From a virus (lineage: Duplodnaviria > Caudoviricetes): a stretch of 40,221 bases of DNA. Of the stretch, positions 1 to 26,244 are shown piece after piece (the stretch's first letter is position 1; every line of letters starts with the position of its first letter). The translations under genes were made by a program, and so were the position numbers. The stretch spans positions 1 through 40,221 of the IMG/VR virus record IMGVR_UViG_3300037311_000474; one strand, given 5' to 3'. The notes under the pieces were generated by a model. The model saw nothing but the letters and a program-made list of their open reading frames with translations, was not told where the DNA came from and made no database searches.

Positions 1-1035
1 TCACGGCGTGATCCTGTCCAGCGGGCTTACAGTGCCTCGTGCTGCCACAGATCCGACGACGTGTGTGTAGATCGTCGTCGTCTCGATGTCCTTGTGGCCC
101 AGGAGCTCCTGAATCGTGCGCAGATCGGTACCGGCCTGCAGTAGGTGTGTCGCGAAGCAGTGGCGCAGCGTGTGCGGCGAGGCTGGTTTGCCGATGCCTG
201 CGGCTTGGCTGGCGCTCTTCATGGCCCGCTGCACGGTCCAATCAAAGATGTGGTGTCGCCGATGCTCGCCAGTCTCGGGATCGACGTGATAGCCCTCAGT
301 GGCAAACACGTACTGCCAAGCCCATTCGCTGCCGGCATTCGGATACTTGCGAGCCAAGGCATGCGGCAGGCCGACGCTGGCGTGTCCAGTGGCAAGGTCC
401 AAGTGATGCCAGCGGCGCCGCTCTTCGAGCAGCTCGGTCAGGCGTGATACCAGGCAGCGCGGCACCATGGTGACGCGGTCCTTGTCTCCTTTCCCGCCGC
501 GGACGGTCAGTCGCAGCTGTGGCAGGTCCAGATCCTTGACCCGGAGGTTCTGACCTTCGGCCAAACGCAAGCCGGTGCCGTACAGCAGCTCAAGGAACAG
601 CCTGGCCCGGCCTTGGACGCGCGCCAGCAGAGCCTGGGTCTCCTGTACCGAAAGCACGACGGGGAGCCTCACCGACTGCTTGGCCCGAACGATGCCGTCG
701 ATCCAGCCAATGTCCTCTTCGTACACCTTCTGGTACAAGAACAGAAGCGCCGCCAGTGCTTGGCGTTGGGTGCTGGCTGACACCTTGCGCTCGGTGGCCA
801 GCCAACTCAAGAAGTCGCGAACCTCGGTGTGTCCAAGCTCACGCGGCGGTCGCCCCGCCCAGTGCGCGAACAGCTTGATCCAGTGCCAGTACGCGGAGAA
901 GGTGTGCCGGCTGTAGTGGCGCACTGCGCAGGCGGCCTGCACTGCCTCTCGAAGCGTGCGAGGCCGCGCGTCGCATAACGCCGGCGCGGCGCCGGTCATA
1001 ACGACGGGCTGTGCAGGTGCGACAAGGGCTTGCAT
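1..1035 (-). CDS. intI: Integron integrase (tyrosine recombinase, IntI family)
   Basis: N-terminal HYSxxTxxAYxxW. Box I LLYGTGLR, GGKGDKDR. IntI-specific insertion VGLPHALARKYPNAGSEWAWQYVF. Box II HTLRHCFATHLL...IQELLGH...TTTIYTHV. Confidence 0.97.
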   Translation of the reverse strand: MQALVAPAQPVVMTGAAPALCDARPRTLREAVQAACAVRHYSRHTFSAYWHWIKLFAHWAGRPPRELGHTEVRDFLSWLATERKVSASTQRQALAALLFLYQKVYEEDIGWIDGIVRAKQSVRLPVVLSVQETQALLARVQGRARLFLELLYGTGLRLAEGQNLRVKDLDLPQLRLTVRGGKGDKDRVTMVPRCLVSRLTELLEERRRWHHLDLATGHASVGLPHALARKYPNAGSEWAWQYVFATEGYHVDPETGEHRRHHIFDWTVQRAMKSASQAAGIGKPASPHTLRHCFATHLLQAGTDLRTIQELLGHKDIETTTIYTHVVGSVAARGTVSPLDRITP

Positions 1036-1046
1036 AGCTCGCCGAT

Positions 1047-1087
1047 GGTGTTATCCGACTTGGCTGTCTGCCGAATTCACGTTAGGC
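1047..1087 (+). other. attI: attI-like site, core GTTAGGC at 1081-1087 (crossover G/TT at 1081/1082)
   Basis: GTTRRRY 46 bp upstream of the intI start, with no upstream RYYYAAC partner. GTTAGGCC complements GGCCTAAC of the first attC. An extra GTTATCC lies at 1050-1056. The left boundary is approximate. Confidence 0.75.
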
Positions 1088-1365
1088 CCCGCGAGTTTGC
1101 GGCCCGCGTCAATCAGTGCGTTCATGCCTTCGCCGCCATCCTCGAAGTCCTCCAGATCCGCCACCGCCTGCAACGGCACCAGTGCGACGTTGATCCACGT
1201 CCGCAGAACGTCAGCTTCTCCGCGCAGCCGCTGAATCTCGTCACCATCGGCCTCGATGCGGTCTGCCGCTTGCCGGGCCCGGCTCACAAACTGTCGCAGC
1301 GTCATCGGGTCTGGGCTTTCCGGCATCGGCATGCGCAGCACGCCAAGCAGCATCACATCGCTCAT
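1051..1365 (-). CDS. Cassette 1 hypothetical protein; reads through attI
   Basis: 104 aa, GGAG RBS, phage-like AADRIEA...EIQRLR motif. The stop is 15 bp before the intI start. Confidence 0.75.
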   Translation of the reverse strand: MSDVMLLGVLRMPMPESPDPMTLRQFVSRARQAADRIEADGDEIQRLRGEADVLRTWINVALVPLQAVADLEDFEDGGEGMNALIDAGRKLAGPNVNSADSQVG

Positions 1366-1391
1366 GCTTTTTCTCCGGTTGGTTACGGCTG

Positions 1392-1494
1392 GCCTAACTG
1401 GTCGCTCAAGCGGCGACCCAGCACGGCGGGTTAGGTTTCCTTGGTACTCGTAGGCCTCGGCGCCGTGCAGGTCGCCTTAGCTCCTACGTTAGGC
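1392..1494 (+). repeat. attC: attC site 1 (103 bp, repeated family)
   Basis: GCCTAAC-N5-GCTCAAGCGGCGACC...GGTCGCCTTAGC-N6-GTTAGGC, with the extrahelical base in the left L box. Confidence 0.95.
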
Positions 1495-1857
1495 CTTACC
1501 GGGCCGCGCACGGGCGAAGGCGCCCACGCAACTCGTGTCGCTCTTGGCCTGCTGCCTCAGTTCGGCGGCCGTGGTCACTCGCGGAGCGGCATTCGTCGCG
1601 GCCTCTTCCCTGCGCGCATCCACAGCTTCGCCGAGGAACTGGAACGGGTGAACCCATCGCGCCAGCCCGGTGGCGACGGTGTGCTCGGCCAGCCACCGGA
1701 AACGCTCGGCATCTGCCGCGTAGGTCTCGGCTGCCTTCGCAAGCTCGCCGAGCAGCTCGCCGGCTTTCTCGGTGTGCTCAATGGTCCCGAAGGCCAGCGG
1801 GTGCGAGGTCATGCTCATCGCAAGTTGCCTCGCTTCTTCCAGTTTCTGCTTATCCAC
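1489..1857 (-). CDS. Cassette 2 phage hypothetical protein (Ead/Ea22-like DAERFRWL motif)
   Basis: 122 aa. The TAA stop lies inside the R' box of attC1. Confidence 0.7.
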   Translation of the reverse strand: MDKQKLEEARQLAMSMTSHPLAFGTIEHTEKAGELLGELAKAAETYAADAERFRWLAEHTVATGLARWVHPFQFLGEAVDARREEAATNAAPRVTTAAELRQQAKSDTSCVGAFARARPGKA

Positions 1858-1903
1858 GTCGTTTAGTCCTAGTACGGTTGCATTGCGCGCTTCGGCTACA
1901 GGG

Positions 1904-1955
1904 GCCTAACACTTCGTTCCAGCCGACCTACGGCGGCTGAACTCGGGCGTTGGGC
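1904..1955 (+). repeat. attC: attC site 2 (52 bp, very short)
   Basis: GCCTAAC ACTTC GTTCCAGCCG ACCTACGG CGGCTGAAC TCGGGC GTTGGGC. Confidence 0.9.
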
Positions 1956-2278
1956 GGCTTGCTGTCTGCCGAGGCTGCGGCCTCCTCGACGATCTGCCGC
2001 CGAATCAGGGCGCACTTATCGTCGCCCTCCCACAAACAGCAGATGTCCCAAACTTGGCGCCGCGAAACGCTGTAGCGCTTGCCGCTGAATTGCAAACTGA
2101 TGCCCAGTTTCACCGCCAGCCGCAGCGCATCGCCGTCGTCTTCCAGCGGGTTCCACGGCTCTTGCACGCCGACCAGCAGCAGGCCGCGCCCGTCGTCGCT
2201 CCAGCGCCCAACGCCGTAGCCTGCCGCCTTCGCCGCCTTCTCCACCAATCGCATATCGCGCAAGCTATCCATGCTCAC
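1928..2278 (-). CDS. Cassette 3 phage hypothetical protein
   Basis: AAGGAG RBS. AAKAAG...WNPLEDDGDALRLAVKL resembles phage early hypothetical proteins. Ends inside attC2. Confidence 0.8.
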   Translation of the reverse strand: MSMDSLRDMRLVEKAAKAAGYGVGRWSDDGRGLLLVGVQEPWNPLEDDGDALRLAVKLGISLQFSGKRYSVSRRQVWDICCLWEGDDKCALIRRQIVEEAAASADSKPPNARVQPP

Positions 2279-2301
2279 TCCTTCTCGCTTCGGATACGGC
2301 C

Positions 2302-2374
2302 GCCCAACTGCTCGCCCAAGGCCGACCCACTCCGGCCTGCGGCCTACGTGGTCGCCTTGCCTCGGGCGTTAGGC
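2302..2374 (+). repeat. attC: attC site 3 (73 bp)
   Basis: GCCCAAC...CCAAGGCCGACC...GGTCGCCTTG...GTTAGGC. Confidence 0.88.
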
Positions 2375-2375
2375 G

Positions 2376-2600
2376 TCAGCGCAACTCTTTCAGCGTGCTG
2401 GCGTCGTAGCACTTGAAGCCTTCCCATGCCCATGTGCCGCGCAGCCGTTTCCCGCCTTTGGCCTCGCAGTCGGCCTTTGCCGTAACTGCTCCGGTCAGCG
2501 TGATCGCAATCACCGCCAGCGCCACCACGATGAATGCTGCCTTGAGTTGATCTCTGCCAGTACACATGACGCCTAACCCTGCGTTCGAGCGGACGGCCAA
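2376..2600 (-). CDS. Cassette 4 small membrane or exported protein (TTG 2600 inside attC4, or ATG 2567)
   Basis: Hydrophobic AAFIVVALAVIAITLTGAV followed by a Cys pair (CEAKGG...FKC). Confidence 0.65.
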   Translation of the reverse strand: MAVRSNAGLGVMCTGRDQLKAAFIVVALAVIAITLTGAVTAKADCEAKGGKRLRGTWAWEGFKCYDASTLKELR

Positions 2601-2657
2601 TGGCCGTCCTTAGTTGTTGAAACGTCAAGCGGGCCTCCGCTCAACTCCACGTTAGGC
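2571..2657 (+). repeat. attC: attC site 4 (87 bp)
   Basis: GCCTAAC CCTGC GTTCGAGCGGACGGCC...GGCCTCCGCTCAAC TCCAC GTTAGGC. Confidence 0.93.
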
Positions 2658-2936
2658 GCTCGCAAAATCCTTCATCACCAACTCCGCAGCGCCTTCGGGC
2701 AGCAGTTCTGTGCACGTCGAATACTTAGCGTCCATCCATGGCTGTGCGGTGTCCGCGATCCTGGCGCGCAGGAACAAGCCTCTGTTCTCGTCGCCAGCTT
2801 CAGCGTGCGCCAGCGCTCGCGCTTCGGCCTCGGTTTCCGCGCGCACCACAAAGCCGAATGCCTTGTCGTACCACGGTTCCCACGGGTCGTCGTTCTTTGC
2901 CAGCCCGTCCACCGGGCGCAGCAGCCATAGCTTCAT
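2652..2936 (-). CDS. Cassette 5 phage hypothetical protein
   Basis: 94 aa, AAGGAG RBS, YDKAFGFVVRAETEAEAR motif. The stop lies in R' of attC4. Confidence 0.85.
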   Translation of the reverse strand: MKLWLLRPVDGLAKNDDPWEPWYDKAFGFVVRAETEAEARALAHAEAGDENRGLFLRARIADTAQPWMDAKYSTCTELLPEGAAELVMKDFASA

Positions 2937-2957
2937 CGTGTTTCTCCTTTAGTCCGC

Positions 2958-3060
2958 GCCTAACTGTTCGCTCAAGCGGCGACCCAGCACGGCGGGTTAG
3001 GTTTCCTCGGTACTCGTAGGCCTCGGCGCCGTGCAGGTCGCCTTGGCTCCTGCGTTAGGC
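2958..3060 (+). repeat. attC: attC site 5 (103 bp; about 4 mismatches to attC1)
   Basis: Near-identical to 1392-1494. Confidence 0.95.
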
Positions 3061-3386
3061 CGTACAAGGGCGCGCAAAGCCTTCCATGCTTCACAGTAGC
3101 GGCGCGTCCGTCGGTAAAGCGCGGCTTCGTTCTCTTGTTGCGTGCCGTTCAGGCCGCTGGCGCCGTTGTATTCGTCGTGCGCGGCAACAAACTCGGCCAC
3201 AACTGCGCGCAACCGCTCGATCTCGTCGGCCGCCTCGGTCAACAGCGGGTCTGGACTGTCGCGAAGTCCATCAAAGCCAAATAGCTCTTCGCCCTGCGCC
3301 GCTTCGCGCATCCGCTCAAGCATCGGCCTAACAGGCAAGTCAACCTGACCTGCGTCGGCGTTCGGCTTTTGTTCGGTATCAGGCAT
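2997..3386 (-). CDS. Cassette 6 phage hypothetical protein; starts in attC6, ends in attC5
   Basis: AAGGAGG RBS and ATG inside the attC6 loop. LLTEAADEIERLR motif. Confidence 0.75.
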   Translation of the reverse strand: MPDTEQKPNADAGQVDLPVRPMLERMREAAQGEELFGFDGLRDSPDPLLTEAADEIERLRAVVAEFVAAHDEYNGASGLNGTQQENEAALYRRTRRYCEAWKALRALVRPNAGAKATCTAPRPTSTEET

Positions 3387-3423
3387 TTTCACGCCTCCTT
3401 GTCAGGTTACTGGCGCGTTCGGC
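3326..3423 (+). repeat. attC: attC site 6 (98 bp, R' = GTTCGGC)
   Basis: GCCTAAC AGGCAA GTCAACCTGAC...GTCAGGTTAC TGGCGC GTTCGGC. Confidence 0.85.
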
Positions 3424-3424
3424 C

Positions 3425-3736
3425 TCACGCGGTACGCGCTGCGGCGTGCTGGCGCTTGATCCAGTCGGCCCACTCGGCGGCAAACTGCTCGCTGCCAGCC
3501 TTCCACGTTTCGTAACCGTGCGTCCACTCAACCACCACGGCGCGCGCAGCAGGCAATTCGTCGCCAGCCGCTTCGCAAATCCATCGGTTGGTGACGGTGG
3601 CCGCAAATTCGGCCAGGGGCTTGCTGGGGGCCGGAATAAGATCGTCCGGCCCCTCAATGTGCACAGCCCAGCACTTGATGCCGTCAAATGTTTCGCGTAT
3701 CGCTTTAGACAGCGGGCCCTCGGTTTCGTTGCTCAT
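3425..3736 (-). CDS. Cassette 7 phage hypothetical protein
   Basis: 103 aa, AAGGA RBS, WAVHIEGPDDLIPAPS motif. Confidence 0.8.
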   Translation of the reverse strand: MSNETEGPLSKAIRETFDGIKCWAVHIEGPDDLIPAPSKPLAEFAATVTNRWICEAAGDELPAARAVVVEWTHGYETWKAGSEQFAAEWADWIKRQHAAARTA

Positions 3737-3767
3737 GCTTACGTCCTTTTGATTGCAGATAACACCA

Positions 3768-3870
3768 GCCGAACTGGTCGCTCAAGCGGCGACCCAGCAC
3801 GGCGGGTTAGGTTTCCTCGGTACGCGTAGGCCTCGGCGCCGTGCAGGTCGCCTTAGCTCCTACGTTGTGC
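3768..3870 (+). repeat. attC: attC site 7 (103 bp family; R'' GCCGAAC, R' GTTGTGC)
   Basis: Near-identical core to attC1 and attC5. Confidence 0.93.
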
Positions 3871-3871
3871 T

Positions 3872-4489
3872 TCACGCGGCGCACGCAGCGGGCTCCGTCT
3901 CGCGCCGCAGTTCCGCGATGAACAGCGGCCACAGCGTGCGCCAAAAGTTCACCGCAAATGGCTTCGGCCGCGTCTGGATGTACTCCCACGGCTCGCTGAG
4001 AAACTTGGCCGCATCGGGCTTACTGTCAAGGCGCAGGCTTTGCGCAGCATCGTCCAGCGCGCGCACCCAGTCGTCCGGCGAGCTGGTCGCCCACTGTTCG
4101 CACTCCTTCAGGGCGTCCCACAAGGCGCGGGCGTCTTCCTTGCTCAGCCGAGTGTGCTTGCGGTTCTCAATTACCCGCTCGCGCATCGCCCGCATGCTGC
4201 CGTTGCCGTCGAACTGCTCCAGCTTGGCGCCCAAGAACTTGCCGAAGGCATAGTCGAACTCGACCTCCTGCAGGAACTCCTTGAACGGGTTGGCGCAGGC
4301 CGTCCAGATGTAGCCCCAGGTGCCGAAGCTCGATTGAATGGTGATCTCGCCGCAGTAGTAGGTACCCTCGTGCGGCGTGCCAACGTTGGCGCGGCGGTCC
4401 CAGCAGTGAAGCGTGATGTTTGCCCACTCACCGCCGCGCTTGCCGTCTCGCACTTCGTAGCACTCGCGCACGCTCTTGGTCACTGGCAT
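3872..4489 (-). CDS. Cassette 8 phage hypothetical protein (205 aa from MPVTK)
   Basis: Protein-like composition (GEITIQSSFGTWGYIW), with AAGGA upstream of ATG 4489. Confidence 0.8.
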   Translation of the reverse strand: MPVTKSVRECYEVRDGKRGGEWANITLHCWDRRANVGTPHEGTYYCGEITIQSSFGTWGYIWTACANPFKEFLQEVEFDYAFGKFLGAKLEQFDGNGSMRAMRERVIENRKHTRLSKEDARALWDALKECEQWATSSPDDWVRALDDAAQSLRLDSKPDAAKFLSEPWEYIQTRPKPFAVNFWRTLWPLFIAELRRETEPAACAA

Positions 4490-4519
4490 TCCGTCTTTCC
4501 TTCGCTTCGGATAAGTGAA

Positions 4520-4581
4520 GCACAACTGGTTAATCGAGAGGGACGCCCGCAGGCGGGCGCCCCTCATTGCCGGCGTTAGGC
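4520..4581 (+). repeat. attC: attC site 8 (62 bp), last site of the array
   Basis: GCACAAC TGGTT AATCGAGAGGGACGCCCG CAGG CGGGCGCCCCTCATT GCCGGC GTTAGGC. Confidence 0.85.
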
Positions 4582-4582
4582 T

Positions 4583-4864
4583 TCACGCCATAGCCCCAAC
4601 ACGCGCCGCGTACTGCCACACGGAGGTGGCCTGGCGCAGCGCGTTGCTCATGGGGGAGTCGGCGGCAGCGTAGTCGTCGCCGGTGCGCACTGCGCGGCCG
4701 CTGGCCACGAGGGACTGCAGGGCGCTGTGCACCTGTGCGCGGCTGAGTGCCACAACGGTGAGCACTGCGTCGATCGTCATCGATCCGTGGTCGTGCAGGG
4801 CCTGCAGCACAACCGGCTGAGTGGCCTTGATGGCAATGCGGCGGGCCGCAGTCTTGCGGGGCAT
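4583..4864 (-). CDS. Small winged-helix/HTH DNA-binding protein
   Basis: VVLQALHDHGSMTIDAVLTVVALSRAQVHSALQSLVASG pattern, GGAGG RBS. Confidence 0.6.
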   Translation of the reverse strand: MPRKTAARRIAIKATQPVVLQALHDHGSMTIDAVLTVVALSRAQVHSALQSLVASGRAVRTGDDYAAADSPMSNALRQATSVWQYAARVGAMA

Positions 4865-5064
4865 CAGGCACCTCCTGCCTGCGCGCGCGGCGCATCGTCG
4901 CGGCCGAGCTGGCCGATGCAGACCGTGGTGTCTCGGCCGACGTTGCCGGCCAGCGCACCGACAACTCGACGCTGCACCCGCTGGATCGCGTCCGCCACCT
5001 CGCCCTGGTTGGCGGCCAGGCGGACGACGGCGGTGGGGCCGTCGTGGAGGTGGGCGGTGGTCAT
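4864..5064 (-). CDS. Early hypothetical protein
   Basis: TGATG overlaps with both neighbours. Confidence 0.55.
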   Translation of the reverse strand: MTTAHLHDGPTAVVRLAANQGEVADAIQRVQRRVVGALAGNVGRDTTVCIGQLGRDDAPRAQAGGA

Positions 5065-5327
5065 CAGGCTTCCGTCGTGGTGGGGCTGAGATCGTTCGCA
5101 GCGGCCAGGCGCGCGTCGAACGGTGGGTGGGCGGCGCGCTGCTGTTGGCGGTACAGCGCGAGCGCCATGCCGCTCAGGACCTGGCCCTTGATCGGGTCGT
5201 TCATGGCGGCGGTGATGCTCTTGAACGCGCCCGCCGGGTCGATGCGGCGCAGCGCCTCGGCGAAGAGGGCCTCGTGTGTCTCGGGCGTGAGGCGCACGCG
5301 GTCGGCGGTGGTGCGGCGTGCGTTCAC
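5064..5327 (-). CDS. Early hypothetical protein
   Basis: GTGA overlap. C-terminal FDARLAAAND motif. Confidence 0.55.
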   Translation of the reverse strand: MNARRTTADRVRLTPETHEALFAEALRRIDPAGAFKSITAAMNDPIKGQVLSGMALALYRQQQRAAHPPFDARLAAANDLSPTTTEA

Positions 5328-5542
5328 CGCTGCCACCACAGAGCAATGGCCAGCCGAACGCGCTCCAGAAGCGGCAGGGGGCGGCAGGGCGTGATGGCTG
5401 CGCGCCCGGTACCGGGCACGGTTGGCGGCTCGGATGCTTCTTCCAGGAGCCCGGGCTGCGTCATGGACTCGTCGAAGGCCGGCACCTGGCAGCGGCGCTG
5501 CGGCCAAAGGCTGGGCCGGCTGAGCGGCTTGACGTTGGGCAT
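5324..5542 (-). CDS. Early hypothetical protein
   Basis: Tightly coupled within the leftward operon. Confidence 0.45.
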   Translation of the reverse strand: MPNVKPLSRPSLWPQRRCQVPAFDESMTQPGLLEEASEPPTVPGTGRAAITPCRPLPLLERVRLAIALWWQR

Positions 5543-5544
5543 GA

Positions 5545-5712
5545 TCAGACCCCCTGAGCCAGCAGCCAGCTGATGGCTGCGAACGCGCCGACGCCGGCCA
5601 CCCGCCAGCTCCAGCGCTCGAGCAACTCCACCACCCGGCGCTCGCGCCGCGGGTCGAGCTCGGTGTGCTGCGCCATTGCGAACGCGGCGCGGCGCTGCGG
5701 TGTGTCGTTCAT
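5545..5712 (-). CDS. Small membrane protein
   Basis: GGAGG RBS, ATGA overlap, C-terminal hydrophobic helix. Confidence 0.55.
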   Translation of the reverse strand: MNDTPQRRAAFAMAQHTELDPRRERRVVELLERWSWRVAGVGAFAAISWLLAQGV

Positions 5713-6038
5713 CGAGCACCTCCGTGCAGGTGTTGCTTGGCTGCGGCCGAGCAGGTCAGGAACCAGTGGCGCCAGAAGTCGGCGCGCATGCGCTCGGCCT
5801 GGATGTCGGTGCGGTGCTCGTGCCGGGCCAGCGTGCTGTCGAGCGCCATGTCGCTGGGGCAGGCGGCCTCGAGCTGGGCCGGCGTGGCCGGCTTCACGTA
5901 GGTGCCGGGCGGCTGCTCGTGCAGCGGCCGCGGCCAGCTCGCCGGCTGGGGTGCGGCGCAGCCCTGCAGCAGCACGATGACGGCGCATGCCAGGGTGACA
6001 AGGACGGATGCGGCGAGGTGCCGCCAGACCGGGCTCAT
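5709..6038 (-). CDS. Putative lipoprotein
   Basis: Signal peptide with lipobox-like LLQGC. Confidence 0.55.
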   Translation of the reverse strand: MSPVWRHLAASVLVTLACAVIVLLQGCAAPQPASWPRPLHEQPPGTYVKPATPAQLEAACPSDMALDSTLARHEHRTDIQAERMRADFWRHWFLTCSAAAKQHLHGGAR

Positions 6039-6226
6039 CGCGCCCACCTACGCTGGTTGGCGGAGAGCGGTCCGCGCGCTACATTGCGATTTCCAACCCG
6101 CAGTGTCCGCTTGCAAACCCGTCTCTCCATGAACGCGCCGCGTGAGAAGCCCCACCGGCAATGGGAACCGCCTGTGCCAGCGCCGCCGGCTCGGCCGCCC
6201 GCCCCGCCACCAGCCCCAGCAAAGCG

Positions 6227-6721
6227 ATGACCATGGACCGCAACGACACCACGCTCACCAACACCACCCGCACGCACGGCCAGGCCGTCGCCGAGGTTCA
6301 GTACGCCGTCGAGTTCGGCCGGCTGAACGAGCGCTTCTGGCAGCGGCTGGACACTGTGCTGAACCTGATGCAGGTATTGGCCGGCGCATTGGCCTTGGCA
6401 GGAGCGTTCTCCGCCGGGCAGTGGCTGCCCGTGGCCGGGGTGGTGTTGGCGGTGGTGTCGGCCCTGCAGATCACGCTGGCGCCTGGCCGCCGCGCGGCGG
6501 GCTTCCTCGTCGCGCGGCGCGACTTCAGCGCGCTGCTGATGCGGGCCTGGAAGCTGGACCCGGCAGACCTGGACGCCGAGCTCGAAGCGCTGCGCGCGCA
6601 GGCGCCGCAGGGCCTGGAGCTGCTGAGTGCCCCGGCCTTCAACAACACCAGCCGCCGCAACGGGCACGACACGACGCTGCCCGAGCGCTGGCCGCACCGC
6701 CTGGCGCGCGCGCTGGCCTGA
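6227..6721 (+). CDS. Two-TM membrane protein, SLATT-like architecture
   Basis: Helix, two TM segments, then a helical tail. Antisense to the early operon. Confidence 0.6.
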   Translation: MTMDRNDTTLTNTTRTHGQAVAEVQYAVEFGRLNERFWQRLDTVLNLMQVLAGALALAGAFSAGQWLPVAGVVLAVVSALQITLAPGRRAAGFLVARRDFSALLMRAWKLDPADLDAELEALRAQAPQGLELLSAPAFNNTSRRNGHDTTLPERWPHRLARALA

Positions 6722-6744
6722 GGCAAGGGCCCGCGAAGCCGGGC

Positions 6745-7110
6745 TCACAGCAGCGGCTCCGGCGAGCCCATGCGCACCTCGTGCGGCCACGGGCCGGCGA
6801 CGGTGTCGCCGCTGCCCCAGCTGGTGGGGCCCAGCACCGGCAGCACGCAGGCGCCGAGCACATCGACGCTGGGCACGGCCACCAGGGTGCCAAAGTCGTC
6901 CAGCACGGCCATGCCCATGGGCGCGCTGATCGAAGGCCCCGGCGGCACCACGATGTAGCGACCCGCGCGCTGGTCACGCACCGGCCACGCAAAGCTGCCG
7001 TCCGGGAACCTCGAGATCGGGCTCAGGTGCGGCGCCGTCTGGCCGCTGCGCTGTGTCTTCTGGCGACCTTGCCCCGGCGCCTCCAGCGCCGCCTCGACCG
7101 TGTTCTGCAT
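6745..7110 (-). CDS. First gene after PL, hypothetical
   Basis: GGAGG RBS, directly downstream of the predicted promoter. Confidence 0.55.
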   Translation of the reverse strand: MQNTVEAALEAPGQGRQKTQRSGQTAPHLSPISRFPDGSFAWPVRDQRAGRYIVVPPGPSISAPMGMAVLDDFGTLVAVPSVDVLGACVLPVLGPTSWGSGDTVAGPWPHEVRMGSPEPLL

Positions 7111-7145
7111 CGCTGCCTCCAGCGGGTGATCCCGCGATGGAGGAG

Positions 7146-7185
7146 AATCTACAACTGTTGTGGCCTGTGCGTCAACAGGTGTTGT
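7146..7185 (-). promoter_or_regulatory. PL-like promoter with OL operators
   Basis: Minus strand TTGACG-N18-TAGATT, overlapped by TCAACAGGTGTTGT (7172-7185) and ACAACTGTTGT (7151-7161). These match the cI/cro operators. Confidence 0.75.
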
Positions 7186-7188
7186 TCA

Positions 7189-7944
7189 TCAGCGAGGTGG
7201 CAACTCCTCTTCGAGGCATTTCGCGAATGCCACTACATCCGCGCGGTGAAGCGTCACGCAGTAGCCGACGAGTTCGTGGCAACGGGGCGCGCCGTCTCCC
7301 TGTTGCTGGCAATGCACGGTCGCGCTGGCCAGGAGGGGAGCAAAGTCTGGCGACGGATCTTGCCGCTGGGTCTTGCTGTGACGCGGTAAGCCCAGGGCGT
7401 CCAAAACTGGAGTGCGGGCATTTGCCAGGCTGAACGCGGTGTCGACCTGTCGCCCATCAAGGGTGAAGAAACGGACCAGCAACCGGCGCCCGCTAAGCAT
7501 GCTGGCAAGCTCGCTCCCAAGACCTTCGGCGTCGTTACCGTGCCAAACCACAAAGCTGGCCGAACGCAGCCCGGCCAGGTACATGGGCGGGTCGATGACG
7601 CGATCGGCCGACAGCTGGCGTGTCAGTTCTCGGTCGCGCGCTGGTTGGGTGTCTATCCGCGTCATCAACGCGCGAGCGGTCGAGAGCACTCCAACGAACC
7701 GATTGGACAAAGTGAATCGAACCCAGACGCGGCCGCCTTCGCCGCGATGAAGTAGCAGTTCATGCCCATCGACATTGACGGTCCTCGCGTAAGTCAGGAT
7801 CTCGTCGGACATGCGGTCACGCTCTACCTCCAGCCTCCAAGCTGCCTGAGCGTGCGCCGATTCGAAAAGCAGGAACAGCGCGGTCGTCGAAAAAACCAGC
7901 CCTCTTGCAAACCGCGAAGCGGCGCTGGCGCGGGCCCGCGGCAT
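7189..7944 (-). CDS. Exported protein (signal peptide); candidate superinfection exclusion
   Basis: TALFLLFESAHA-QAAW signal and cleavage site. Last gene of the cI operon. Confidence 0.6.
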   Translation of the reverse strand: MPRARASAASRFARGLVFSTTALFLLFESAHAQAAWRLEVERDRMSDEILTYARTVNVDGHELLLHRGEGGRVWVRFTLSNRFVGVLSTARALMTRIDTQPARDRELTRQLSADRVIDPPMYLAGLRSASFVVWHGNDAEGLGSELASMLSGRRLLVRFFTLDGRQVDTAFSLANARTPVLDALGLPRHSKTQRQDPSPDFAPLLASATVHCQQQGDGAPRCHELVGYCVTLHRADVVAFAKCLEEELPPR

Positions 7945-7948: not shown

Positions 7949-8809
7949 TCAACCTGCCCAGTCGCTGCCGAGCTGCCCGGTCGCGCGTGCGGCGCGGGCG
8001 ATGCGGTCGAGGTAGTCGGCCATGTCCTCGGCGTTCTCGGCCGCGACAAGGCGGCCGGCGGTGCTGAGCAGGTCCACGCTGCGGGCGGCGTGGCCGGCGC
8101 CGCTGCCGCTGACGACAACGTAGCACTGCGTCTTCTGGCCGAAGTGCTCGCGCGCCGCGCGCAGCACTAGGCACTTGGCCTGGGCCTCGAAGATCTTGCC
8201 GCGAACGCTCTCTTCCGCGACCTCGAAGTCCACCGTCTCGGTGATGTGCATCACCGAGTTCTGAAGCGCGAACTCCGCATTCAGCCCGTGCTTGGCGCTC
8301 ACCGGAAAGTTGCGTACCACCTTGTGGGCCGCGATGTCATCGGCGTGCCTGCCCATGATGCCCATGTTCTCGAACTGCCGGCGCAGGCGCGCCCGGGTGT
8401 GCTGGCGCACGCGGTGCACCTCGGGCGCCATGGCCGGCTTTTCTGCGGCCGGGGGCGGCAGCACCGACTCGGCCATCACCGCCTGCACCTGGGCATCGAA
8501 CGTGGCCTGGTTGCTGTAGGCGAAGCTGCCTTCGAACTCATGCAGCGCCAGCGCGCCCTTGCTGCCGGCCAGCACCTCGCGTACTGCGGCAAGGCTGTCG
8601 CACTGGGCCAGGTGCTCGCGCAGGTTGGCGCCCAGGCGCCGCATGCGCCCCTCGGGCGAGCTGGACACGGCGGCGAGCTTCTCGCTGCTGGGCAGCGTGG
8701 CGACGGTCCAGTGCCCGTCTGCCGCCTGAACGACGGCGCCGACGCAAAGCACGTCGATGCGTTCCGCATCGGGGCGAAGGGTCAGGAGGCTGTAGGTGGC
8801 TGTTTTCAT
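7949..8809 (-). CDS. DUF3037-like protein, partner of the HipA-like kinase
   Basis: N-terminal YSLLTLRPDAERIDVLCVGAVV. ATGA-coupled to the kinase. Confidence 0.75.
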   Translation of the reverse strand: MKTATYSLLTLRPDAERIDVLCVGAVVQAADGHWTVATLPSSEKLAAVSSSPEGRMRRLGANLREHLAQCDSLAAVREVLAGSKGALALHEFEGSFAYSNQATFDAQVQAVMAESVLPPPAAEKPAMAPEVHRVRQHTRARLRRQFENMGIMGRHADDIAAHKVVRNFPVSAKHGLNAEFALQNSVMHITETVDFEVAEESVRGKIFEAQAKCLVLRAAREHFGQKTQCYVVVSGSGAGHAARSVDLLSTAGRLVAAENAEDMADYLDRIARAARATGQLGSDWAG

Positions 8810-9519
8810 GGCAGGGCGGATTGTGCGGCGGCCAGCCGGCGCGCGCGAGCGATGGACACCCACCACTGGCGTAACAGCATGCGCGGCTGGGGCGCCAGCC
8901 AGGCGGGCGGCATGGGCGCAAGCACGTCACGCATCCACTCATCCGGCAGCGCCTGGATGGTGCCCAGCACGTCCACGGGGCGTCGATAGGGCATTGTGTC
9001 CTGGCTCAGCAGCAGGCGCAGGCACTGCATGGTGTTGCAGGCCGGCATCGGCAGGCCCGGCAGCGGCCAGCCCAGGACCAGCAGGGCGTGGCTGAAGTCG
9101 ATGACGCGGGCCACCACTTCGCCGTCGAGCTCGAGGTACAGGAAGTTGTCGTGGTGCCGATCCACGTTGTGGGCAAAAAGGTCCAGCGCGTGTGTCTTGG
9201 CGAAGACATCGGCGTTGCTGATGCGCCCGCGCGCCTCCACGAACGACACGCTGCCGCCCTGCCACTGCGAGCCGAAGTAGGCCACGCCCGGCTGATCGAA
9301 GCGCTCCACCACGCTGAAGGGAGGCACCGGCAGCCTGCACGCCTGCGCCAGGTGCGAGCAGATCCACTCGCTGGCCGGCACCATGGGGTGCTTGCCTTGG
9401 CCCTTGCACAGCCAGCGGTGCGTGGTGACGTTGTCGACGCCGATGAAATCGGCAGCGGCGGTGGAGGGCGGGGGCTTGATGCGATGGCAGATGACAGGCA
9501 GCAGACTGGTCTGGATCAT
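8806..9519 (-). CDS. HipA-like (HipA_2/CtkA-type) Ser/Thr kinase
   Basis: WLCK...SEWICSHLAQACRLPVP, NVDRHHDNFL catalytic loop, IDFSHA metal-binding motif. Confidence 0.85.
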   Translation of the reverse strand: MIQTSLLPVICHRIKPPPSTAAADFIGVDNVTTHRWLCKGQGKHPMVPASEWICSHLAQACRLPVPPFSVVERFDQPGVAYFGSQWQGGSVSFVEARGRISNADVFAKTHALDLFAHNVDRHHDNFLYLELDGEVVARVIDFSHALLVLGWPLPGLPMPACNTMQCLRLLLSQDTMPYRRPVDVLGTIQALPDEWMRDVLAPMPPAWLAPQPRMLLRQWWVSIARARRLAAAQSALP

Positions 9520-9995: not shown

Positions 9996-10077
9996 GCCTT
10001 GAGTCTGACAACTCGTGTTGTCGGAGGCAAACAACGTTGGTTGCACATGTGGCAACAGTTGTTGTAGGCTACGCGCC
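9996..10077. promoter_or_regulatory. OR region: three 14-bp operators with PRM and PR
   Basis: ACAACTCGTGTTGT (10008-21), ACAACGTTGGTTGC (10031-44), GCAACAGTTGTTGT (10052-65). PR is TTGCAC-N18-TAGGCT. PRM (minus strand) is TTGCCT-N17-CAGACT. Confidence 0.8.
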
Positions 10078-18422: not shown

Positions 18423-18434
18423 TCCAGCCAGGCC

Positions 18435-18480
18435 GTGAGACGGTCCCCCTGATCGTCTCACCGCCGGCTGCCTAGAGTGC
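18435..18480 (+). promoter_or_regulatory. Late promoter copy 1 (dyad GTGAGACG-N11-CGTCTCAC + -10 TAGAGT)
   Basis: Near-identical to 26258-26303. Confidence 0.7.
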
Positions 18481-20335: not shown

Positions 20336-22315
20336 ATGCCGCTTACGCGCAACCGCAACCGCCCTTACGAAACCGACGACAACAACGGGTTGCCGCTGCA
20401 GCCGGGCGCTCGCGTGTATGAGGGCGCTGCGATGGGCTCCACGAGCAGCGGCGTGCGCCCGCTGGTCTTGGGCGATCCGTTCGCCGGGTTTGCGGTGGCG
20501 GCCAGCACGCCGCAGGACACCGCTTGCCGGGTGCGGACCCGCGGGCAGGTGCTGCTCAACGTAGCCGGCGTCGTCGCAGCGTCCGATTTCGGCAAACTCG
20601 TGTACGCCACCGATGACGACACATTCACGCTGACGCCGGGCCAAAGTGTTGTCGGACGCGTCATGCGGCATGTAAGCGGATCTCTGGCTTTGGTGCAGTT
20701 CGACGCTGCCTTGCCGGTTTTCAACGCTCAGCAGCAAATCGTTCTTGCCCCATCCGGAGGCGACGACGCTTTGCTGATGCAGCAATTCGTCAACGACATG
20801 GCCGCTTCGAAGCGACCGGCGGTTCTTGGTGCCGGCGACTTCATCATCGGTTCGCCGATGACCTGGAGAAGCCAACAGCGGCTCGGCAAGTGGGACAACA
20901 AAGGCATCGGTCTGCGTGTCCTGGGTCAGGGGCCCGAGAACACGAGACTGCTGTCTGCGATCGTTGGCAACGCGCCCATGATCTCGGTCAGTGCGCCGTC
21001 CTCGGCCGGCATCGGCAAGCGCAACTACCTCACCGAAATCGGCGGGATGTCGTGGTTGAGGGCGCCCGAAGGGGTCTTGATCCCGGCTGGCACCACCAGC
21101 GGCGAGGCGTTTCGCGCGATCCCAATCGTCGACACCTACGAGGTCAACGTCGCTGCACTGTTCCGCAACCTTTACATCGACGGCTTCGATCACTGCATCA
21201 CGCTCTCGGACAACACCATCGCCGAGCTCGAGGGCGTCTGGTTCATGGAGTTCTTGACCGGCGTGCGCCTGGGCTTCAACTGCGACGTGATCAAGATGCG
21301 CCGCTGCTGGTGGGGCAGTGAGCAGTTCGGAACCTCGTACCGCAACAACGCCGTGGCGGTGCAACCCGGGTTCGACGACGGGCGCGGCAACGGCAACGCC
21401 GGGCAAAACTGCATCGAGCTGGACCACTGCGCGATGGCCAAGATCGGCTGCGGAGTGGAATGTGCGGATGGCAGCACGGCCAGCGGCATCCTGTTCCACG
21501 AGGTGTTCTTCGAGGGTGTTCGGCAGTATTTTCACCACCTTGGCAACACCACGCAGGATTCGATCGTCACCTTCTCGCACTGCCACTTCTCCTCGGTCAC
21601 GATCAACGACACCACGCAGCACGACCCGACGCTGGCGGGCTACGAGGCCAAGATCCAGTTCGACGGTGACATCGCCGTCAGCGGCGGCAAGCGGCCGATC
21701 CTCACGCTGCGCAACTGCGTCTCCGACACCAACGCGCAGCCGGGCAACGCCTGGATCAGCTTCAACAACCGTGAGGGTTTCATCACTCTCGAAAACAACC
21801 GGCTGCGGCCCTCGGCTTCTTTTGGCATTGCACGTTGCATCCGCACCGGTTGGCAGACCTGGAAGAGCTTTCCGGTGGACTCTGCGCAGCAGGGTGGCAG
21901 TTTCCAGTTGGGCGATTCGCAGCAGGCCGGCCTGGGGATGCTCGCCGGACGCCCGATGCAGGTCAGCGCCACGATCACGCCGGGTTCGACATACGACCTG
22001 GACGTGCTTGCTGGCACCGAGTTCGCGCTCACGCTGCCGGACGGCGACTGCACGATCAACGTCTTCAACTTCACCGGCACCCCGCCGAACCGGATCGTCT
22101 CGGCTCTCACCGAGTTGAGCATTGTCTTGATCCTGCCCGCCAGCGTTACCGCCACACGCACGATCACCTGGGGCTCGCGGCTCAAGATGAACGCAGCGAC
22201 GTTGACCTACGGGGCTGCCGACGGCAACAAACGCGCCGTGTTCAAGGTCAAAGGCGCGGGCTTCGGCAACACGATGCTGTTGTCCACCGCTGGGCCAGTT
22301 TTTGCTTCAGCCTGA
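20336..22315 (+). CDS. Head-decoration-like N-domain fused to a putative beta-helix (pectate lyase-like) domain
   Basis: First ~120 aa paralogous to 22345 and 27426. APSGGDDA...QQF...VLGAGDF resembles a beta-helix cap. Confidence 0.65.
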   Translation: MPLTRNRNRPYETDDNNGLPLQPGARVYEGAAMGSTSSGVRPLVLGDPFAGFAVAASTPQDTACRVRTRGQVLLNVAGVVAASDFGKLVYATDDDTFTLTPGQSVVGRVMRHVSGSLALVQFDAALPVFNAQQQIVLAPSGGDDALLMQQFVNDMAASKRPAVLGAGDFIIGSPMTWRSQQRLGKWDNKGIGLRVLGQGPENTRLLSAIVGNAPMISVSAPSSAGIGKRNYLTEIGGMSWLRAPEGVLIPAGTTSGEAFRAIPIVDTYEVNVAALFRNLYIDGFDHCITLSDNTIAELEGVWFMEFLTGVRLGFNCDVIKMRRCWWGSEQFGTSYRNNAVAVQPGFDDGRGNGNAGQNCIELDHCAMAKIGCGVECADGSTASGILFHEVFFEGVRQYFHHLGNTTQDSIVTFSHCHFSSVTINDTTQHDPTLAGYEAKIQFDGDIAVSGGKRPILTLRNCVSDTNAQPGNAWISFNNREGFITLENNRLRPSASFGIARCIRTGWQTWKSFPVDSAQQGGSFQLGDSQQAGLGMLAGRPMQVSATITPGSTYDLDVLAGTEFALTLPDGDCTINVFNFTGTPPNRIVSALTELSIVLILPASVTATRTITWGSRLKMNAATLTYGAADGNKRAVFKVKGAGFGNTMLLSTAGPVFASA

Positions 22316-22344
22316 ACGCATATTTTTTCGACAAGGCAGATTCA

Positions 22345-23061
22345 ATGGCACTGGCGCGCAACCGCAATCGTCCATACGAGACCGATGACATCAACGGTTT
22401 GCCGTTGCTGGCTGGAGCGCGTGTCTTTGAAGGTGCGGCAATGGGCGCGACTGGCGCTGGCGTTCGGCCTTTGGAGCAGGGTGATCGCTTTGCAGGTTTT
22501 GCGATGGCAGCGAGCGTGCCGTCGGATGCCTTCTGTCAGGTGCGCACGCGCGGCCAGGTTGTGCTGAGCGTGGCCGGCGTTTCAGGAGGCGCTGACTTCA
22601 ACCGGCTTGTTTTCGCTTTTGACGACGACACCTTCAGCCTGACGGCCAACGCAAGCCCTGTAGGTCGCGTCATGCGGCATGTAACCGGTACCTTTGCGGT
22701 TGTGCAGTTCGACGCCGCAGGCCCAGAGCAGCTGTCGGCGTCCGAAGCCGCGACTGTCCGCGCCTGGGCGCTGGAGCCTGTGGTCGACGCCACCTCGCGC
22801 GCCATCACCGCTGCCGACAACGGCCGGCGCCTGGCGCCAGCGGCCGGCATCACCTACACCATCCCGGCGGGACTGAGCCCGAAGCCGGCTTTCAGCGTGC
22901 AGTGCCCGCCCAGCGGCACGGTGACGATCGCCGTGAGCGGTGGCGCCACCATCAACGGCGCCGGAACCGCGCTCACGCGGGCTCGCACCTCCAACCGCGT
23001 GGGCTTCGTGGTCGAGCCGTACACGGACGCTGGGGACGCCTACGGCGTGAGCGGGGCCTGA
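22345..23061 (+). CDS. Second head-decoration (DUF2190-like) paralogue
   Basis: MALARNRNRPYETDD...DDDTFSLT. Confidence 0.7.
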   Translation: MALARNRNRPYETDDINGLPLLAGARVFEGAAMGATGAGVRPLEQGDRFAGFAMAASVPSDAFCQVRTRGQVVLSVAGVSGGADFNRLVFAFDDDTFSLTANASPVGRVMRHVTGTFAVVQFDAAGPEQLSASEAATVRAWALEPVVDATSRAITAADNGRRLAPAAGITYTIPAGLSPKPAFSVQCPPSGTVTIAVSGGATINGAGTALTRARTSNRVGFVVEPYTDAGDAYGVSGA

Positions 23062-23065
23062 CGCT

Positions 23066-24658
23066 GTGGCAACCGCAGTCGCAGACGTCTACACGGCCGC
23101 GGTCGGGCCGGTGTTCGCTGGCATGGCCGATCCCAGGGCGACTGCGATCTCGATCACATCGCCCAGCCCTGCCAGCGGGGTGGTGGGAGTGCAGTCAGGT
23201 GTGTGGACCGTGCAGGTCAACGGGCAGCTGGACGCGGACCTCACCGTCACGCCCAGTGCCGGCGCTGGCGGAGGCACGTTCGCTCCGAGCTCGATGCTGA
23301 TCGCAGCATCGGCCACACCCGCGGCGGCGAGCTTTCGGTACACGCCAGCCAGCACCGGAGCGAAGTTGATCACGCTGGCCAACGACCGGGGATTGAGCAA
23401 CCCGGCGCCGGCGGCCTATACCTCGCTGGCGGTGCAGCCAAGCGCGCGCGTCGCACTCATGGGCGACAGCCTGACCGACCGGCGCGAGATCGCGCCCACG
23501 CGCAACTGGAGCCCGTTTTTCTGGAGCAACGGCCTGGGCACCAACGGCGGCCAGCAGCTGGTGCAGAACTGTGGCGTGAACGGCGACACCGTGGGTCAGA
23601 TGCTGGCCCGTGTGAACAACAGCTTCGCAGATTCCAGTCCCGGGCTAGCCGGCATCGCGCCGCTGGGCCATGTCTACATCCGTGCCGGCACCAACGACGC
23701 CAGAGCCCTCACGCCGATCGGCACTCTGGCGGCAGACCTGACCTCGTTGCTGCAGGCCTGCAAGAGCTACTGCACGAAGGTCATCATCCTCGCGGTGCCA
23801 CCGATGGGCCCAAGCGAGAGCAACTTCGCGGCCAAGAACGCGGTGGTCATCACCTACAACGCCTGGCTGGCGCAGTACGCGGCAGACAACGCAGCGGACT
23901 TCCTCTTCGTTGACGACTGCGTCAACCTGCGCGACGGCGCCGGGGCGCAGCTTGCGGGCTACTTCAACGTCGACGGCGTCCACAACGAGGGTCGAGCGAC
24001 CTGGCGCCAGGGTGTGGATGGCGCGGCGGCGATGGCCTCCTACTTTGCGACCTTCGCGCCGTACCCGAGTCCGCTGGTGCTGACTGCCGCGGACGTGCAC
24101 CCGACAACGGCCCAGTACGTGCCCAACGTGCTGATGGCCGGCAGCGGCGGGACGGCCGGCGCTGGCGTCACCGGCCAGGTGGCCGACTCGTGGACCATCG
24201 CTCAGACGGCCTCCGGCAACGAGGCCACGGTGAGCAAGGTCGCCGCGGATGTCGGCGACGCGAACCAGACGCCCTGGCAGCGCATCACGCCGACCCTCAT
24301 CACCAATGGCGGCGGGTTCCGCATGTCGATCCCCTTCGGCATCTCCAACCTGACCGCGGTGCAGACCGCGCTGGAGATGGTGATGGAAGTGCGGCTGGTG
24401 AACTGGAACGCGGCCAACTTCTCGGCCCTGCGTGCCTACGTGAACACCAGCATCGGCAAGGTCACGTGGAACCTCGATTTGAAAATGTCTGGCCCGGAGA
24501 CGCTCAACCACACGCTGGTCCTGCGGCATGCCCAGCCGCGCAACACCGCCACCACGCCCAGTAGCCCGGCCCTGTTCATCGACCTGCTTGCTGTGGTAGC
24601 CGCCAGCGGTGCGATGGGTTCGATCGATGTCCGAAACGCCAGCGTCAGGCAGCTTTGA
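23066..24658 (+). CDS. Virion-associated SGNH/GDSL hydrolase with Ig-like N-terminus
   Basis: GDSLT, G, GTND and DGVH blocks. Confidence 0.85.
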   Translation: MATAVADVYTAAVGPVFAGMADPRATAISITSPSPASGVVGVQSGVWTVQVNGQLDADLTVTPSAGAGGGTFAPSSMLIAASATPAAASFRYTPASTGAKLITLANDRGLSNPAPAAYTSLAVQPSARVALMGDSLTDRREIAPTRNWSPFFWSNGLGTNGGQQLVQNCGVNGDTVGQMLARVNNSFADSSPGLAGIAPLGHVYIRAGTNDARALTPIGTLAADLTSLLQACKSYCTKVIILAVPPMGPSESNFAAKNAVVITYNAWLAQYAADNAADFLFVDDCVNLRDGAGAQLAGYFNVDGVHNEGRATWRQGVDGAAAMASYFATFAPYPSPLVLTAADVHPTTAQYVPNVLMAGSGGTAGAGVTGQVADSWTIAQTASGNEATVSKVAADVGDANQTPWQRITPTLITNGGGFRMSIPFGISNLTAVQTALEMVMEVRLVNWNAANFSALRAYVNTSIGKVTWNLDLKMSGPETLNHTLVLRHAQPRNTATTPSSPALFIDLLAVVAASGAMGSIDVRNASVRQL

Positions 24659-24661
24659 GCC

Positions 24662-25852: not shown

Positions 25853-26244
25853 GCGGCATCCTGCGCAACCTCCGCGAGCAGCTGGGCAGCGGCACGCTCA
25901 ACAGCGGCCTGCGTTACGCCGGCTACACGGGTGCGCAGATCCAGGCCGCGACAGCGACTGGTCATGCCGGGGCCGGCGTTGGCATCAACGACTCGCTCGA
26001 AGCGACCAAGCAGTACCGCTTCCGCCCGGCCCTGGGACCGGCGTGGCCAGGGCTGTTTCGCGATGACGGAGCGTTTCGGGCCAACACTGCCGTGAGCACC
26101 ACGTACCAACTCTACGAGGACAACGTGCTGGTCGGCTCGGCGGCCATCTCGGTGCAAATCGGTGCCGCGCCTCCACCGCCACCGCCTGCTGCCGCCAGCC
26201 TGGCCGGGCTGAGCCCGCGGCAGCGGAGGCTCGCCACCACGTAG
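25849..26244 (+). CDS. Hypothetical protein
   Basis: 131 aa, ATGA-coupled. Confidence 0.6.
   Translation: MSGILRNLREQLGSGTLNSGLRYAGYTGAQIQAATATGHAGAGVGINDSLEATKQYRFRPALGPAWPGLFRDDGAFRANTAVSTTYQLYEDNVLVGSAAISVQIGAAPPPPPPAAASLAGLSPRQRRLATT

Follow-up and report, generated by a model that had tools for sequence, protein, structure and literature searches.

The 40,221-base window analysed here is the whole of virus record IMGVR_UViG_3300037311_000474 (Caudoviricetes), and its left end carries an integron, consisting of an integron integrase gene (intI), an attI site and an array of eight gene cassettes with their attC recombination sites. Scanning of 51 open reading frames (ORFs) of the window with PHROGs revealed a lambdoid layout, with leftward early genes, cI, cro, a cII-like gene, and genes for primase, terminase, portal, capsid, tail, holin and lysis proteins. 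The gene set of a lambdoid temperate phage is present except for its own integrase, the integrase region lying beyond the contig end, and the sole recombinase gene among the scanned ORFs is intI. The record starts at the intI stop codon, where the contig is cut while the DNA continues; in run X1, a freshwater metagenome that is possibly the source sample, a 1,718-nucleotide (nt) contig of the same depth extends 1,624 nt beyond base 1. The integron comprises the following features, with covariance-model scores of the attC sites in bits.

1-1035, minus strand: intI, intact integron integrase gene, 344 amino acids, member of a phage clade (TIGR02249, alignment and trees)
1036-1087, plus strand: attI region, core GTTAGGC at 1081-1087, crossover between G and T at 1081/1082 (conservation in nine relatives)
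1051-1365, minus strand: cassette 1 gene, 104 amino acids, no family match; in frame through attI, stop 15 nt before the intI start
1392-1494, plus strand: attC1, 103 nt, 38.6 bits; repeat type common to attC5 and attC7
1489-1857, minus strand: cassette 2 gene, with 1857 or 1818 as its start; the stop codon falls within the R' box
1904-1955, plus strand: attC2, 52 nt, 53.5 bits
1928-2278, minus strand: cassette 3 gene, phrog_5086; reads into attC2
2302-2374, plus strand: attC3, 73 nt, 38.2 bits
2376-2567, minus strand: cassette 4 gene, about 63 amino acids, hydrophobic N-terminus, start uncertain
2571-2657, plus strand: attC4, 87 nt, 49.9 bits; partner in a putative junction to cassette 1
2652-2936, minus strand: cassette 5 gene, 94 amino acids, stop within the R' box; near relatives are antisense cassettes elsewhere
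2958-3060, plus strand: attC5, 103 nt, 29.9 bits
2997-3386, minus strand: cassette 6 gene, 129 amino acids; starts inside attC6, reads into attC5
3326-3423, plus strand: attC6, 98 nt, 13.3 bits; lowest model score, clear R and L boxes
3425-3736, minus strand: cassette 7 gene, 103 amino acids
3768-3870, plus strand: attC7, 103 nt, 25.1 bits
3872-4489, minus strand: cassette 8 gene, 205 amino acids, phrog_13202 / PF26211 (Phage_phiTE_072)
4520-4581, plus strand: attC8, 62 nt, 41.5 bits; distal end of the array

All eight attC sites (1392-4581) have their top strand on plus, and our own pattern scan, which recovered every one of them at the starts proposed in the first-pass annotation (1392, 1904, 2302, 2571, 2958, 3326, 3768 and 4520), detected no other site in the 40 kb. 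The expectation from shuffled sequence is 0.06 such patterns per 3.7-kb region and 0.47 per window. Boxes R'', L'', L' and R' as well as an extrahelical base at position 16 were recognised in all eight sites. The purine share of the unpaired spacer exceeds 0.5 in seven, and the bottom strand is the lower in energy in four. As an independent check, a covariance model was trained solely on bacterial attC sites, 28 being taken from the 34 with a length of 55-72 nt; seven of the eight sites scored 25-54 bits on plus, with attC2 reaching 53.5 bits on plus vs 9.5 on minus. The extrahelical base, the spacer lengths, the covariance model and the attI boundary agree in making plus the attC top strand, as had been proposed.

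The R'' box matches the start core of its own cassette at seven of seven positions in all eight cassettes, while its matches to the adjacent R' box number 7, 6, 6, 7, 7, 6, 5 and 5 of 7, being perfect in three of the eight. Across the IntI clade described below, R'' is perfect to its own core in 72 of 99 cases and to the adjacent R' in 13 of 99. Because R'' complements its own start core rather than the adjacent R', the cassettes were evidently once circular. The same match was also considered as a strand test and rejected, since it is symmetric.

The assembly of this region was checked by comparing X1 contigs with positions 1-7500. They show no difference from the window, except that the listed pieces leave short gaps where attC sites are repeated, and a single contig of 19,952 nt covers 3837-7500 with zero differences. 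It bridges position 4581, where a chimeric join had been named as a possible objection, so that no chimera is present there.

The integrase is full-length and carries the integron-specific insertion, as first noted. It scores 390 bits against TIGR02249 (cut-off 265) and aligns over its full length to VchIntIA (PDB 2A3V) with an E-value of 3e-69, the alignment also showing the catalytic R, K, HxxR and Y to be kept. The IntI of relative L001 is 85% identical, and the divergence of the two (dN 0.10, dS 0.79, dN/dS about 0.13) points to purifying selection on the enzyme; in-frame stops occur in only 3 of the 74 integrases of the clade. The attI-like core reported at 1081 is confirmed by nine relatives, which align with the window through the intI start up to the G/TT core at 1081 and then diverge, thereby fixing the position and strand of attI. 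The site adjoins the 5' end of intI, and in L009 a cassette sits at the matching point. A search of metagenomes with the attI motif gave two matches, both chance occurrences within unrelated genes. No promoter match was found on plus near attI in a promoter scan, and the window contains no strict LexA box (CTGT-N8-ACAG), which is also absent from all 60 clade loci vs present in 7 of 61 outside loci. In a review, LexA control of integrons is called highly conserved (PMC8946536).

The most unusual property of the array is the direction of its genes. All eight cassette ORFs lie on minus, the strand of intI and opposite the attC top strand, as the first-pass annotation had it. None of the eight is thus placed canonically, on the attC top strand and read from the Pc promoter away from intI; nor is this the inverted-integrase layout, since intI lies on minus and the attC top strand is plus. 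In the clade, the segments between attC sites are antisense in 91 cases, sense in one and unclear in six (n=98). Among genome loci outside the clade the respective numbers are 3, 33 and 15 (n=51 segments), and among outside-clade viral loci with upstream arrays 6, 8 and 4. Genes of 99 clade segments stop before the core in 25 cases, have TAA inside the core in 17 and read through it in 43, with 14 uncalled. All 43 read-through genes cross the core AAC in frame, vs 64% for such triplets in phage genes, and just one of 53 bacterial sense cassettes reads through the core. The cassette genes keep ribosome-binding sites and frame. In 14 of the 99 clade segments (including examples in L013, L014, L019, L076 and the window at 3326-3386) the gene starts inside the attC loop, so that the N-terminus is encoded by an arm of the hairpin.

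To place the integrase, this IntI and an alignment of 14 relatives were used as scan queries, yielding 49 and 80 viral loci and 80 genome loci; two of these scans represent the best 80 of 570 and the best 80 of 562 matches. After removal of partial and identical sequences 170 integrases remained, of which 74 form one clade (SH support 100, FastTree) comprising 69 viral contigs, the window and four genome loci. A 53-row IQ-TREE analysis united the 20 sampled clade members (20/20) with support 99/98 and separated them from the integrases of class 1, Vibrio, Shewanella and hosts. Members from genomes include L076 and L056, which have repressor, primase and integrase genes (L056 is identical to L022 and was counted once, as viral); L052, with a phage integrase and a tRNA downstream of intI; L050, a short contig; and L051, with host genes directly downstream and no integrase. 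The genome of L051 (G001), from a cultured strain, encodes four full-length integron integrases, one of them in the phage clade and one belonging to an ordinary host array with sense genes, whose IntI falls outside that clade; this strain is a possible test system.

A search with ten query integrases, in loci with at least 1.5 kb of room, found a separate phage integrase within 2.5 kb downstream of intI in 46 of 66 clade loci vs 0 of 55 outside genome loci, and for this reason IntI is not regarded as the prophage integrase. In L001 the intI stop is overlapped by an excisionase-like gene, after which come an integrase, a tRNA-Ser-like core and, further on, lysis and tail genes. Lysis, tail or terminase genes lie beyond the integrase in L001, L003, L004, L006, L008, L015 and L076, which is the layout of an excised genome and shows that intI and the array travel inside the phage. 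The first-pass annotation took the array and intI as the end of the leftward operon; given xis and the phage integrase downstream in relatives, intI is probably not its last gene. The gene immediately upstream of intI is co-oriented with it in 43 of 53 clade loci. Phages bearing an IntI of the clade include siphovirus-like and baseplate-encoding ones, and a proteobacterial host is inferred for the present phage because relatives occur in Beta- and Gammaproteobacteria. The notion that complete integrons are rare in phages holds for isolates, with IntI matches in 9 of 50,697 INPHARED records, and not for metagenomic viral contigs.

Change of the array was followed in four contig pairs with identical IntI and at least 1.4 kb of upstream DNA. 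L008 and L009 are 99.98% identical over 8,586 nt, and L009 has two additional cassettes, one distal and one at attI, with breakpoints at R cores. Over 7,165 nt L023 and L026 share 99.9% identity; beyond that, L023 has several cassettes where L026 has one, and the two rejoin at attI. L169 and L170 differ by several cassettes. The breakpoints fall at the 3-nt core, also between unlike attC sites. Of the proposal that the integron acquires, deletes and reorders genes, gain and loss are thus seen in three of the four pairs and reordering in none, because the shared cassettes keep their order; relatives differ in content as anticipated, and the order is constant. Invariant arrays with an inactive IntI, the pattern that was said to argue against such a role, are not what was observed, since the arrays vary and IntI is intact. 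No relative with the backbone of this phage and another array was found; within the compared DNA, the part common to L001 is intI and attI only. Elsewhere in the clade, L007 bears one two-gene cassette twice, and the only sense cassette gene called (L007:6655-7263) follows an AT-rich stretch, perhaps a promoter of its own, the cassette possibly being of host type. An AT-rich, apparently gene-less cassette with a long near-perfect palindrome occupies the attI position in L026 (9537-9920).

The X1 assembly provides a further lead. When the window was simulated as a de Bruijn graph, every listed end of the X1 array contigs was recovered except 1078/1107 and 2628/2657, and these two breaks were exactly reproduced by one of 72 simulated att junctions, that of attC4 to cassette 1. 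X1 may thus contain this junction, as would result from circularisation or tandem duplication of cassettes 1-4; depth inside (12.3 and 10.9) slightly exceeds that outside (9.5 and 9.5). No explanation was found for the X1 contig breaks 70/94 and 775/799 within intI. Joints listed at 85% likeness were set aside, as their sides are shorter than 40 nt.

The cargo resembles ordinary phage genes. PHROGs matched two of the eight proteins, both in families of unknown function, and scans with local copies of Pfam, NCBIfam and PADLOC matched none of the eight; the cassette 8 protein falls in PF26211 (Phage_phiTE_072), with no locus in the viral scan and none in INPHARED. The 25 viral homologs detected for gene 3 all sit in operons as plain genes, with no attC flanking them. 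Gene 5 has 18 homologs in the comparison; the three most similar (80-85%) are cassettes led by an attC and antisense to it, with attC sites and neighbours that differ from those here, and the remaining 15 have no attC model match beside the gene. Cassettes of relatives encode methyltransferases, PAPS-reductase-like and DHH proteins. One cassette homologous to cassette 5 (L241:1402-1790) stands alone and antisense between phage genes with no surrounding array, apparently at a secondary site.

The attC sites themselves also appear to be exchanged. attC1, attC5 and attC7 are 87-93% identical, and this one type (1392-1494, 2958-3060, 3768-3870) accompanies three unrelated genes in the window; an exact scan of viral contigs for its motif gave 0 matches. 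Close relatives of genes 3 and 5 (L240, L241; an X4 record) bear different attC cores. Cores therefore appear to have been exchanged between genes, and judging from the sequences such exchange makes bottom-strand recombination alone an insufficient explanation.

Upstream of the array lies the early region, with the following features.

4583-6038, minus strand: six overlapping or abutting phage early genes without attC, G+C about 0.72 vs 0.64 in the array
6230-6721, plus strand: opposing moron-like gene, weak match to a two-transmembrane effector (PADLOC, E 0.0017)
6745-7110, minus strand: first gene downstream of the PL-like promoter
7146-7182, minus strand: PL-like promoter TTGACG-18-TAGATT with operator-like motifs at 7151-7161 and 7173-7182

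The array joins the early genes at 4583, as the first-pass annotation described, and six genes follow before the leftward run is broken by the opposing gene. This gene belongs to a moron-like unit (6130-6721, plus) consisting of a short proline-rich ORF and a two-transmembrane protein. The promoter-like site itself occupies 7175-7146 on minus, and an overlapping 10-mer recurs exactly at 10053-10062, between cI and cro; this operator 10-mer has four matches allowing one mismatch vs 1.07 expected, a comparison made with a motif picked post hoc. Expression from PL, as had been suggested, is consistent with the gene direction, the promoter-like site and the shared operator-like motifs. A single transcript from PL through the array and intI is nevertheless only inferred, because the gene at 6230-6721 stands in its path.

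These data make it very probable that the array is a phage-owned, IntI-driven integron whose antisense cassette genes are likely read from the phage early promoter. Judged on its sequence, it is an integron in structure that departs from the canonical type in gene polarity and in the LexA box. The proposed domestication of an integron by this phage is supported by the phage-dominated IntI clade, the signature of purifying selection, the phage-type cargo and the clean gains and losses of cassettes. In the suggested mechanism the integron geometry is ordinary, and each gene is built antisense into its own cassette. After release from the repressor, transcription from PL would run through the cassette genes into intI and then, as in relatives, into xis and the phage integrase. 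The phage repressor would take over the control usually exerted through a LexA box. IntI would act on folded attC bottom strands, as it does in bacteria, to cut cassettes out and to insert new ones at attI, which in this phage would form the promoter-distal end of the array. With the genes antisense and attI promoter-distal, each attC would consequently act as a 5' leader and not as a 3' trailer. Genes that end at the crossover core or pass it in frame would let translation continue across the hairpins; the report that expression in arrays is set by translation of upstream cassettes, not by distance (PMC11511950), fits this in-frame read-through. IntI would thus likely add and remove accessory genes of the phage.

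A further proposal, which we regard as tentative and rather less likely than not to be correct, is that the system works as a cassette factory with its own gene pool, in which IntI makes cassettes from early genes and the flipped polarity insulates the pool. IntI would place attC at natural in-frame AAC or TAA-C points near gene ends; the idea of such genesis is based on Loot's attG preprint, according to which IntI can insert cassettes at genomic sites. As for insulation, PL would not express host anti-phage cassettes captured at the phage attI, nor would a host Pc express phage cassettes.

Several observations weigh against the interpretation as a phage-owned, IntI-driven integron. attC6 reached 13.3 bits (E 0.23) with the host-trained covariance model, near the background of 12.5, so that this check, which had been proposed at the outset, is weak for one site, and the bottom strand folds lower in energy in four of the eight attC sites as placed in the array. 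The attC and gene calls come from our own heuristics, not from IntegronFinder, and the clade segments and related cassettes are not independent. Because all loci were fetched by their likeness to this IntI, the counts are not frequencies. Antisense cassettes also occur outside the clade (six segments in L033, L211, L214 and L219); outside viral loci being mixed, the clade does not have this polarity to itself. Little weight attaches to the LexA contrast, as the strict box is missing from most outside loci too. The PL-like promoter matches 9 of 12 consensus positions, with two such sites found vs 0.8 expected, and is separated from the array by the plus-strand gene. Among the sister contigs, L164 and L165 match throughout their overlap, and shared cassettes retain their order in all three differing pairs. 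No cassette-excision joint was found among the joints listed for X1, and the X1 breaks ascribed to the putative junction could also arise if related DNA in the sample gave rise to two branch points independently.

Among alternatives, the one to be taken most seriously holds that polarity is a filter: cassettes of both polarities would enter, and those opposing PL would be purged as disrupting expression of intI, xis and int, with no benefit from the cargo being necessary. The sense cassette of L007 and the apparently gene-less one of L026 fit such a process, and no cargo function was assigned by the family scans; the cargo nevertheless resembles ordinary phage early genes, including the methyltransferases, PAPS-reductase-like and DHH proteins of relatives, and retains ribosome-binding sites and frame. 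We consider this explanation unlikely, though far from negligible; it is compatible with the phage-owned integron on mechanism and differs on benefit alone. It is considerably less probable that the array, although real, is changed mainly by a host IntI or by homologous recombination between attC sites, the phage IntI being a passenger or having another role. The similarity of attC1, 5 and 7 would allow homologous recombination, bottom-strand recombination alone does not explain how the same gene came to have different attC cores in different phages, and hosts of related prophages possess their own IntI. Against this, breakpoints fall at the 3-nt core, unlike attC pairs included, the phage IntI is intact and under purifying selection, the new cassette of L009 sits exactly at attI, and attI is recognised only by its cognate integrase (PMC2095811).

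Insertion of the prophage into a chromosomal integron of the host, or a mis-assembly joining the two, is largely refuted and can be given very little credence. The contig does begin at the intI stop, the G+C content of the array (0.636) is below that of its flanks (0.722), the attC sites resemble host sites, and captured pieces have been described (Qi et al. 2023, PMC9892861); yet host arrays are sense in 33 of 51 segments and this one is antisense, its cargo is of phage type, intI lies between phage genes in relatives, the IntI clade is nearly devoid of host integrons, and one contig bridges 4581. Equally remote is the idea that IntI is the phage's integrase and the phage one giant cassette, as the lack of another integrase among the 51 ORFs and the location of intI at the lambdoid int position might suggest, since L001 has xis, a phage integrase and a tRNA-Ser-like attachment core after intI, and no attC lies at the far end of the window.

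If the phage-owned integron is as proposed, the usual link of attC polarity to gene direction is broken, and a programmed source exists for the mosaic early regions of temperate phages, marking a pool of hundreds of small phage genes swapped as units. The same gene family occurring as a plain operon gene and as a cassette bears on how cassettes form, and the birth of cassettes, if the factory proposal holds, would be observable in a 40-kb inducible phage. Integrons are generally seen as tools of bacteria and have lately been viewed as stores of anti-phage genes (Darracq 2024, Kieffer 2025); a phage IntI lineage means that phages, the opposing party in this arms race, may employ the same gene-capture machine.

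Other features of the window lie outside the integron. On minus at 7949-9519 is a HipA-like kinase gene (weak Pfam matches), coupled to a phrog_5137 gene just downstream of cI; the two are a candidate prophage defence or toxin-antitoxin pair. Between the portal and capsid genes lie three copies of the phrog_1731 structural domain with a 72-nt DNA repeat (20336-28196) and a GDSL-lipase-like gene (23066-24658). A 47-nt repeat with an internal palindrome, 91% identical between its copies at 18434-18480 and 26257-26303, stands upstream of the portal and head protease genes. Rfam gave no match for the window.

Modular early genes and antisense cassettes each have precedents. Individual cassettes whose gene is antisense and has a promoter of its own are known, toxin-antitoxin cassettes among them, and in T4-type phages the promoter early stem-loop cassettes are short early genes with related hairpins between them, shuffled as modules; we know of no site-specific recombinase, attI or attC structure in the latter.

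The sedentary chromosomal integrons of Beta- and Gammaproteobacteria compared here (L053, L107, L113, L236) have IntIs 48-56% identical to that of the window and the same attC architecture, and share with it an intI opposite the attC top strand (Cury 2016, PMC4889954). Their genes lie on the attC top strand and are read from Pc away from intI (PMC4889954), in contrast to the bottom-strand genes of the window, which run toward intI, and the phage clade does not include their IntIs, even where a single genome has both kinds (L236 vs L051). Integrons with an inverted integrase (Treponema group) resemble the window in that intI and the cassette genes are co-oriented; there, intI is flipped and the gene-attC relation is ordinary, whereas in the window the intI-attC relation is ordinary and the gene is flipped in its cassette (Cury 2016). 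The inverted-integrase layout is also that of a second phage IntI group (L029, L030, L031, L034, L036 and L038, six loci, with L028; SH support 99), in which the array lies downstream of intI, with attI right after the intI stop, sense genes and a 7-nt attC spacer; this layout may be seen as an alternative solution to the one-direction operon problem. It recurs in Virus Rctr41k (L155, KX853513.1, 4680-10101), whose integrase is annotated only as xerD and, on a long branch, did not cluster with the second group in the 53-row IQ-TREE. In backward insertion by top-strand recombination (Nivina 2016, PMC5027507), attC and gene invert jointly; the attC sites of the window are correctly oriented, and hence the inversion lies in the construction of the cassette.

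Regular and inverted-integrase layouts are described in Cury 2016, Neron 2022, Nivina 2016, Darracq 2024 and PMC13323075, and the excerpts of these papers make no mention of genes flipped inside correctly oriented cassettes. Literature searches, which covered few subscription papers, found no report of this IntI clade or polarity. Among 10,705 phages, Qi et al. 2023 (PMC9892861) reported three complete integrons, a solitary integrase and 17 clusters of attC sites, and they showed that IntI1 recombines attC sites of phages. Those phages and the window alike contain intI, attI and attC cassettes within phage DNA, and DNA methyltransferases occur in cassettes of both those phages and relatives in the present clade. 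Of the complete integrons reported there, one is described as a subset of a Vibrio host array, another as class 1 pieces carried by P1, and the third as an integron of Shewanella type within a cryptic prophage. According to the annotations, cassette genes of Shewanella M16-3 face away from intI behind a LexA site, and in the Vibrio phage four of the five genes before intI face away from it. The main text of that study, unlike the present lineage, presents no phage-specific IntI clade or uniform antisense array, and the window does not conform to a captured host piece, as its IntI is not nested among host IntIs and its cargo homologs are phage genes. Integrons in phages have thus already been published, as host-type pieces, and what is apparently new here is the phage IntI lineage and its flipped gene polarity.

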